IMG/VR virus record: IMGVR_UViG_2671180603_000013
Location: 1 to 11,186 of that record
Length of the DNA: 11,186 nucleotides
Origin: a virus
Lineage: Duplodnaviria > Heunggongvirae > Uroviricota > Caudoviricetes
Reading direction: 5' to 3' (one strand)
Positions 6,046-7,243 of the stretch are shown in pieces. Made by a program: the position numbers and the translations under genes. Positions within the stretch are counted from its first letter, which is position 1, and each line of letters opens with the position of its first letter. The notes beneath the pieces are model-generated. The model ran no database searches and was not told the DNA's origin. It saw only the letters and a program-made list of their open reading frames with translations.

Positions 6046-6192
6046 ATGGCATTTAAACACTATGATGTTGTCAGGGCGGCGCCGCCACAGCCATCTGCTC
6101 ATGCGTTGGGTTCACAAGCAAACCTCAGGCCCACTGCTTTGCGCAAAAGCAGAATGAGCCTATCAGAGACAGGCTTAATGATCCATGCTTAA
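6046..6192 (+). other. 48-codon ORF starting with a nanS-p start-codon fragment (recombination scar); its stop overlaps the methyltransferase start
   Basis: Bases 6046 to about 6085 match the first ~40 bp of the nanS-p gene at 8509 (both encode MAFKHYDVVRAA), then diverge. ATGCTTAA: methyltransferase ATG 6185-6187 overlaps this ORF's TAA 6190-6192. Confidence 0.35.
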
Positions 6193-7243
6193 TACTGTAA
6201 AAATATCCAGTTGTGAGTTAATCAACGCCGACTGCCTGGAATTTATCCGGTCGTTACCCGAAAATTCTGTTGACCTGATAGTCACGGACCCGCCGTACTT
6301 TAAAGTGAAGCCTGAGGGCTGGGATAACCAGTGGAAGGGCGACGATGATTACCTGAAGTGGCTGGACCAGTGTCTGGCGCAGTTCTGGCGGGTGCTGAAA
6401 CCTGCCGGAAGTCTTTACCTGTTCTGTGGTCATCGCCTGGCATCTGATATCGAAATCATGATGCGTGAACGCTTCAGTGTGCTGAACCATATTATCTGGG
6501 CGAAGCCGTCCGGACGCTGGAACGGATGCAACAAGGAAAGCCTGCGGGCGTATTTCCCCGCCACAGAGCGCATTCTGTTCGCGGAACATTATCAGGGGCC
6601 GTATCGTCCGAAAGATGCCGGGTATGCGGCGAAGGGCAGTGCACTGAAACAGCATGTGATGGCCCCGCTGATTTCTTACTTTCGTGATGCGCGAGCTGCC
6701 CTGGGGATAACGGCAAAACAGATTGCAGATGCCACAGGAAAGAAAAACATGGTGTCGCACTGGTTCAGTGCCGGTCAGTGGCAGTTGCCGAATGAAAGCG
6801 ATTATCTGAAATTACAGGCGCTGTTTGCCCGGGTGGCAGAAGAGAAGCATCGGCGTGGTGAACTGGAAAAGCTCCACCACCAGCTGGTGGATACGTATAC
6901 CTCACTGAACCGGCAGTATGCGGAGCTGCTGAGTGAATATAAACATCTGCGGCGGTATTTTGGCGTGACGGTGCAGGTGCCGTATACCGATGTGTGGACG
7001 CATAAACCGGTGCAGTTCTATCCCGGGAAACATCCGTGCGAAAAACCGGCAGAAATGCTGCAGCAGATAATCAGCGCTAGCAGTCGTCCGGGTGACCTGA
7101 TTGCAGATTTTTTCATGGGGTTGGGTTCGACAGTGAAAGCGGCACTGGCGCTCGGGCGTCGTGCAATTGGCGTTGAGCTGGAGACTGAACGTTTTGAGCA
7201 GACGGTTCGGGAAGTACAGGATTTAGTCAGCCAGAACGGATGA
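6185..7243 (+). CDS. DNA methyltransferase, beta-class N6-adenine/N4-cytosine type
   Basis: N-terminal catalytic motif IV DPPY (LIVTDPPYF) and C-terminal AdoMet motif I (DFFMGLGST), the circularly permuted order typical of beta-class amino-MTases. About 120 aa insert between them. No adjacent restriction-endonuclease-like ORF. Confidence 0.85.
   Translation: MLNTVKISSCELINADCLEFIRSLPENSVDLIVTDPPYFKVKPEGWDNQWKGDDDYLKWLDQCLAQFWRVLKPAGSLYLFCGHRLASDIEIMMRERFSVLNHIIWAKPSGRWNGCNKESLRAYFPATERILFAEHYQGPYRPKDAGYAAKGSALKQHVMAPLISYFRDARAALGITAKQIADATGKKNMVSHWFSAGQWQLPNESDYLKLQALFARVAEEKHRRGELEKLHHQLVDTYTSLNRQYAELLSEYKHLRRYFGVTVQVPYTDVWTHKPVQFYPGKHPCEKPAEMLQQIISASSRPGDLIADFFMGLGSTVKAALALGRRAIGVELETERFEQTVREVQDLVSQNG

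Follow-up and report, generated by a model that had tools for sequence, protein, structure and literature searches.

A probable M.EcoGII-family adenine methyltransferase with an unusual motif I in the rearranged late region of a lambdoid prophage

M.EcoGII, a beta-class enzyme from a prophage of E. coli O104:H4 (C227-11), methylates adenine in any sequence context, and its in vitro substrates include dsDNA, ssDNA, DNA:RNA hybrids and RNA (Murray et al. 2018, PMC5778455). The paralogue M.EcoGI, identical to M.EcoGII at 333 of 349 positions, is equally non-specific, and an enzyme of phage 1720a-02 was named as very similar to M.EcoGII; M.EcoGI and M.EcoGII were unexpressed in the lysogen, over-expression resulted in slower growth, and overcoming host restriction was the role that the authors proposed (PMC5778455). 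Homologues with ~92-93% amino acid similarity to M.EcoGI/GII (PMC6602927) and a homologue 99% identical to M.EcoGI (PMC4659465) have been annotated as “nonspecific” and are silent in E. coli lysogens; for these STEC O111 and ST131 homologues, neither methylation signal nor transcript was found in the lysogens (PMC6602927, PMC4659465). M.EcoGII is a dimer by size-exclusion chromatography (SEC), and its published AF2 model comprises a Rossmann part (residues 1-134 and 260-349), a four-helix, HTH-containing target-recognition domain (TRD; residues 160-237) and a long charged helical linker; the site-specific relative M.PflMI is without the linker, which was suggested to give non-specific nucleic-acid binding (PMC11551740). 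It should be noted that the biochemical characterisation of this family dates from 2018, that it is commercially available as a reagent and that thousands of genomes carry its annotation; thus, the family, the non-specificity and the presumed role are already known from the literature, and the two new local points of the current study are the S313L allele and the replacement of 3.85 kb upstream of the gene.

We analyzed a window (the whole stretch of viral DNA under study, 11,186 nucleotides) with an open reading frame (ORF) that had been described, from the sequence alone, as a solitary beta-class DNA methyltransferase (MTase). The features of this gene are:

6185-7243, + strand, MTase coding sequence, 352 aa, ATG start (probable M.EcoGI/GII-family beta-class adenine MTase; profile and BLASTP evidence)
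6287-6298, + strand, motif IV, DPPY, catalytic, residues 35-38 (motif position in the translation)
6602-7024, + strand, central region, residues about 140-280, probable beta-class TRD slot (alignment and AlphaFold model)
7106-7129, + strand, motif I (AdoMet-binding FxGxG), DFFMGLGS, residues 308-315, with an unusual Leu313

The bounds of the ORF in the original prediction were exact, and its class assignment was upheld by several profile collections. The Pfam profile N6_N4_Mtase (PF01555) matches residues 29-340 with an E-value of 7.9e-42 and a score of 144 bits (cut-off 26.7), with 219 model positions spread across 312 residues. NCBIfam adenine-MTase models match as well, three PHROG “DNA methyltransferase” families match with E-values of 1e-100 to 1e-106, and in PADLOC the top-scoring model is one for Type II MTases (E 5e-163). 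Motif IV is N-terminal, the TRD is central and motif I is C-terminal, i.e., the order is that of the beta class. In the window MTase, DPPY is kept and FxGxG is found, with Leu in place of the usual Ser at the x position 313; in the alignment columns of 113 diverse relatives, D35 is conserved in all 113, P36 in 104, P37 in 112 and Y38 in 106. The Rossmann-type core superposes on solved beta-class members, the nearest being M.MboIIA, M.BceJIV and CcrM, and the span aligned to solved enzymes (M.BceJIV 8urk/9c3u, M.RsrI, CcrM, M.MboIIA, M1.HpyAVI, M.PvuII) covers only residues 8-114/141 and 281-343. As judged from these matches, the ORF is a genuine phage beta-class N6/N4 amino-methyltransferase.

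Comparison with M.EcoGII by BLASTP gave 324 identical residues of 349 (93%) over the full length, the central TRD and linker included, a value good to about +/-1%, the reference sequence being machine-read from Suppl. Table S1 of PMC11551740 with a few apparent reading errors (e.g., NHHIW vs NHIIW). The MTase of phage 1720a-02 is identical at 333 of 352 positions (95%). The likeness to M.EcoGII extends to the beta-class motif order, the length (349 vs 352 aa), the predicted fold and the carriage by an E. coli prophage. The differences comprise about 23 substitutions, mostly in residues 141-280, a GLG in place of the GSG of motif I (S313L) and a C-terminus that reads ...DLVSQNG in the window protein and ...DLIV in M.EcoGII. 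M.EcoGI, M.EcoMV (EC958 prophage Phi4) and M.Eco95JB1I-II, likened here by description, belong to the same family, are prophage-borne and are predicted or shown to be non-specific; they are alleles of other E. coli lineages and are silent in lysogens. We estimate the probability that the gene belongs to the M.EcoGI/M.EcoGII family of lambdoid-prophage beta-class N6-adenine MTases at roughly 85%. The predicted specificity of the enzyme is none, i.e., any adenine, because it is ~93% identical to M.EcoGII, which is non-specific, as is M.EcoGI. The original prediction held that the target specificity could not be read from sequence; that statement is superseded by the identity to an enzyme of demonstrated non-specificity (PMC5778455), and the gene is better read as a predicted non-specific adenine MTase than as a site-specific one with an unknown target.

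In beta-class MTases, the TRD separates the catalytic from the AdoMet half of the protein. In the window MTase, this slot is occupied by a stretch of about 130 aa (residues ~140-280) that is extra compared to the shared MTase core and unmatched by the solved methyltransferases; the TRDs of M.MboIIA (1g60), M.BceJIV (8urk), CcrM (6pbd), M.RsrI (1eg2) and EcoP15I Mod (4zcf), all sequence-specific and several from restriction-modification systems, are unrelated to it. When 1.84 billion cluster representatives were scanned with HMMER, 292 proteins reached E<=1e-30, and many of the 150 listed ones, at 31-50% identity, align without a break over nearly the whole query. Among 113 full-length relatives (31-68% identical), at least 95% fill residues 161-210, and just 25-62% fill residues 221-240. 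The AlphaFold model (monomer, pLDDT 91.3), for which the input was 83 diverse sequences down to 31% identity, superseded an earlier run on 40 close homologues (at least 74% identical) that gave a poor model with pLDDT 66. In the current model, helices 146-173, 177-184, 190-194, 204-223 and 234-255 follow the last core strand (127-135) and precede a segment that leads back into the core; the first four belong to an XRE-like HTH helical bundle, and 234-255 is the second arm of a charged helical hairpin (204-223 and 234-255). This reproduces the published M.EcoGII layout, with its HTH four-helix-bundle TRD and long charged helical linker. M.PflMI, a member of the same wider cluster, is reported to share the overall predicted architecture, including an HTH-type TRD, and is likened here by description; however, the highly charged helical linker present in the window MTase is reportedly absent from it. 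According to the model, the extra stretch is a TRD with a clade-specific charged hairpin, i.e., a predicted HTH-type nucleic-acid-binding domain. The original prediction of a ~120 aa central insert (residues 150-270) thus stands, within somewhat wider limits, as an extra stretch; its “unknown role” does not, as the stretch lies in the canonical TRD position and is modeled as an HTH bundle with a hairpin.

The gene is carried in the late region of a lambdoid prophage, downstream of the antiterminator gene Q and on the same strand, with the following neighbors:

590-1648, + strand, DUF968/HNHc_6 protein (domain match), which we take to be NinG-like
1649-2029, + strand, RusA
2026-2253, + strand, truncated N-terminus of Q (the original upstream Q)
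about 2376-2534, opposite strand, IS2-like InsC fragment
between the InsC fragment and the second RusA, + strand, 85-aa ORF
2958-3332, + strand, second RusA
3329-4183, + strand, intact antiterminator Q of 284 aa, the closest activator of late genes on the upstream side (Pfam Antiterm, E 7e-55)
4223-4250, + strand, GC hairpin and T-run, tR'-like terminator just after Q
4286-4538, + strand, first tRNA cluster
between the first tRNA cluster and the MTase, + strand, DUF3927-like ORF (homology to the annotated locus L002)
between the first tRNA cluster and the MTase, opposite strand, iraM-like ORF (homology to L002)
6046-6086, + strand, orphan 5' fragment of a second nanS-p gene, ~14 codons, MAFKHYDVVRAA..., at a rearrangement junction (repeat and alignment)
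6087-6184, + strand, retained family upstream region, just 98 bp, where the homology to canonical loci starts (alignment; BLAST vs L004 and L002)
7284-7533, + strand, tRNA cluster, Met-CAU-type/Ile2, Arg-TCG and Arg-TCT, beginning 41 bp behind the MTase stop codon, an arrangement shared with Stx2 phages
8509-10362, + strand, NanS-p-type SASA carbohydrate esterase, the next gene downstream
10513-10728, + strand, P21-type class II holin, with which the lysis cassette begins
downstream of the holin, + strand, DUF1327 gene

This order confirms that the MTase lies, as originally stated, between Q and the lysis genes, with the nearest intact Q 2 kb upstream. The gene is also solitary, as had been proposed: none of its neighbors (Q, tRNAs, DUF3927-like, iraM-like, NanS-p, holin and DUF1327) is a restriction endonuclease, and of five window proteins scanned with PADLOC only the MTase matched, the other four, all neighbors, having no nuclease or defence-system match. 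Related loci are likewise without a cognate restriction endonuclease beside the MTase; in the window, the endonuclease partner that defines a Type II restriction-modification system is missing from the MTase's side. The DUF968/HNHc_6 protein was considered as a cognate nuclease and rejected, as it lies 4.5 kb upstream, in an early-region block ahead of RusA and Q.

The canonical order in E. coli and Stx2 phages is Q-orf65-MTase-tRNAs-(stx2 or iraM)-nanS-holin, with a terminator between Q and the 65-aa ORF. Matches to the MTase DNA were obtained in 2021 of the 5426 complete E. coli genomes, with a best identity of 97.3%, and in 247 phage records, mostly Stx2-converting phages; among the matches listed, most are annotated as “DNA methylase”. 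The nucleotide identity to the window MTase is 95.2-95.5% for phages 1720a-02 and Stx2_95, and 84.8% for phiP27. In 1720a-02 and the Stx2a phages (Stx2_95, phiP27), the gene occupies the same slot, Q - small ORF - MTase - tRNAs, with stx2AB or some other cargo next, and then nanS-p and holin. Compared to the Stx2a-phage loci, the window has no stx genes and no 65-aa upstream ORF, and a nanS 5' fragment is found 98 bp before the start codon.

The upstream segment of the window is rearranged. Positions 321-2231 and 6085-11186 of the window are collinear with L004, a locus in a 4.8 Mb genome, at 99.8-100% identity, and the MTase gene is nucleotide-identical to the L004 copy. Positions 2232-6084, a 3.85 kb mosaic, replace most of Q and the 65-aa ORF of the canonical locus; the block consists of the IS2-like fragment, the 85-aa ORF, RusA, Q, tRNAs, DUF3927, iraM and the nanS-p 5' fragment. 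Its part from the tRNAs to nanS-p (4247-6086) is 98.9% identical to a prophage of E. coli AF39. After the terminator at 4223-4250, the sequence jumps straight to the tRNA leader that normally follows the MTase; the block is thus itself a form of this late region that lacks the MTase. None of the complete E. coli genomes contains either junction of the block, and an exact search of a one-genome-per-species collection gave no match to the junction between the nanS fragment and the MTase. With the original Q and the 65-aa ORF replaced, the normal regulation of the MTase may be lost in the window; we infer that transcription begun behind the intact Q, by polymerase that Q has modified, could nevertheless extend as far as the MTase. 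A hairpin at 6157-6175, before the start codon, was considered as a translational control element and rejected, as the predicted folding of the 5' region was not better than that of shuffled sequences (z -0.79). The aligned relatives offer no variation with which this hairpin could be tested.

By analogy with the characterised family members, the enzyme would bind nucleic acid without base-specific contacts and flip out any adenine, and a methyl group would be transferred from AdoMet to N6 of the flipped base. In the lysogen, the MTase would be off, being placed behind a Q-dependent late terminator, so that its transcription would need Q antitermination. Upon prophage induction, m6A would blanket the replicating phage DNA, and the methylated progeny DNA, on entering a new host, would evade many of the adenine-sensitive restriction systems there. 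Expression at induction has been proposed for the family in the literature, and a limited literature search found no direct evidence of it. Of the two roles that the original prediction held plausible, anti-restriction is the one proposed in the literature for M.EcoGI/GII, whereas the transcriptional silence of family members in lysogens (PMC5778455, PMC4659465, PMC6602927) makes a standing epigenetic role there unlikely.

The present activity of the enzyme is a separate matter. In the close family, motif I was found in 116 of 120 representatives, and all 116 have Ser at position 313, Leu being found in none of the 120. A count of the same alignment column in 113 diverse relatives gave Ser in 96, Thr in 8, Gly in 4 and Leu in 1, with H and Y also seen. 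The S313L change is a single C-to-T substitution, TCG > TTG, and the relatives carry the Ser codons TCG/TCA. It is one of four departures from family positions that are conserved in at least 90%, the others being S197G, P230L and V306I. Placed in the glycine-rich AdoMet loop, a residue as bulky as Leu could impair cofactor binding. The protein sequence is named in databases for Shigella sonnei and for Shigella generally, and the exact protein is recorded in very many assemblies, with index entries in 4314 blocks of the collection; in S. sonnei-type genomes, and in that of L004, the MTase-bearing prophage holds IS insertions. Considering S313L, the three other changes and the rearranged prophage, the enzyme encoded by this allele, the common S. 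sonnei one, may be attenuated or dead. Pairwise dN/dS compared to phage homologues is 0.16-0.18 (0.26-0.28 in the central region), which shows, by this measure, purifying selection on the M.EcoGI/GII family.

These observations raise a tentative alternative, to which we assign a sizeable minority share of the probability: the gene would be a decaying relic, with an intact ORF and a dead or strongly attenuated allele, lying idle in its present host within a defective, IS-riddled and rearranged Shigella prophage. The near absence of Leu313 from close and diverse relatives, the change of three more near-invariant residues, the IS elements inside S. sonnei prophage copies and the truncated Q, IS2-like fragment and orphan nanS 5' fragment of the window all point in this direction, as does the altered N-terminus of the nearest relative, from Shigella boydii. 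However, the reading frame is complete, and the other motif residues are all intact (DPPY, F310, G312 and G314, and, ahead of motif I, the HPCEKP block). Furthermore, MTase classes place no strict requirement on the x positions of FxGxG, relatives have T, G, H or Y at 313, and the intact Q and late-type terminator remain upstream on the same strand. Clear attenuation of the S313L allele is possible but the less probable outcome. A natural detoxifying loss of function through S313L, which is present in many sequenced S. sonnei genomes, is likelier than a role in RNA methylation (see below), and a natural motif I variant of a widely used enzyme is of some interest. A decayed state is compatible with membership of the family and disputes present function only.

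For the preferred reading of a non-specific M.EcoGI/GII-type MTase, we also considered the physiological substrate. A tRNA cluster follows the MTase within about 40-50 bp in every locus examined, and M.EcoGII methylates rA in RNA and DNA:RNA hybrids in vitro; the physiological substrate could be RNA, i.e., the adjacent phage tRNAs or late transcripts, instead of or besides DNA, with the MTase co-expressed with the tRNA cluster during lytic growth. This possibility is very slight. The activity of wild-type M.EcoGII on RNA is ~100-fold below that on DNA (V0 0.12 vs 11.1; PMC11551740 Suppl. Table S3), and the linkage between MTase and tRNAs is not obligatory, because the same tRNA cluster is found without an MTase at 4246-4551 of the window, directly after Q.

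Equally slight is the chance that the gene encodes a sequence-specific orphan MTase whose constant task in the lysogen is epigenetic or regulatory. In favor of this reading, many orphan MTases act so, M.PflMI of the same wider cluster is site-specific and databases label the protein “site-specific DNA-methyltransferase”. Against it, the protein is 93-95% identical to enzymes shown to be non-specific, it has the charged linker that M.PflMI is missing, lysogen methylomes and RT-PCR in E. coli with 92-99% homologues revealed no attributable motif and no transcript, and the database name is an automatic family label.

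A 3.85 kb mosaic block (2232-6084) stands in this window where the S. sonnei-type prophage, otherwise collinear with it, has the 65-aa ORF and the larger part of Q. The block comprises an IS2-like fragment, an 85-aa ORF, a second rusA, an intact Q, tRNAs, DUF3927, iraM and a 5' fragment of nanS-p. Neither its left nor its right junction was found in 5426 complete E. coli genomes (0/5426 for each).

Features discussed, in window coordinates
~2231/2232, left junction of the mosaic block
2376-2534, minus strand, short ORF with an InsC-like N-terminus
4649-5002, plus strand, 117-aa ORF
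5235-5424, plus strand, STnc100 sRNA (Rfam RF02076)
~6086/6087, right junction of the mosaic block
7610-7799, plus strand, STnc100 sRNA (Rfam RF02076)
8077-8286, plus strand, STnc100 sRNA (Rfam RF02076)

Direct duplications with ~90-94% identity were detected for rusA together with the start of Q (1649-2253 versus 2958-3560), and for the tRNA-cluster leader with its tRNAs (4246-4551 versus 7244-7546); therefore, the window contains two different lambdoid late-region modules in tandem. In the module that directly follows the intact Q, a terminator hairpin joins the tRNA leader without intervening genes (4223-4260), and this leader is the one usually found after the methyltransferase gene. This module is a clean methyltransferase-less allele of the same late region, without the 65-aa ORF and the methyltransferase. 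The 65-aa ORF (MLKQQDMTETARVVFNELS...), which is missing from the window and has no functional annotation, is conserved and usually located between Q and the methyltransferase gene in E. coli and Stx2-phage loci, for example, at 4286-4483 and 4652-4849 in the related methyltransferase-carrying loci L002 and L003, respectively.

The short ORF at 2376-2534 has the appearance of an IS remnant lying at the left junction of the rearrangement. Its opening residues resemble the InsC N-terminus of IS2, and a Pfam search yielded no match for this ORF. The 117-aa ORF is probably non-coding; it had no match in Pfam or PADLOC, and was left unannotated in the 98.9%-identical locus of the E. coli AF39 prophage.

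The STnc100 sRNA family was matched three times in the window (124-161 bits, compared to the gathering score of 47), with one copy after the first tRNA cluster and two after the second; these copies correspond to the repeat families D2 and D3.

Outside the window, two methyltransferase relatives, P0001 and P0092, appear to be chimeras produced by assembly or by recombination. P0001 has an internal 34-aa duplication about the YKHLRRYF...GKHPC segment, and in P0092, the N-terminal 280 aa of the methyltransferase are joined to a tail-fibre-assembly (Caudo_TAP) C-terminus.
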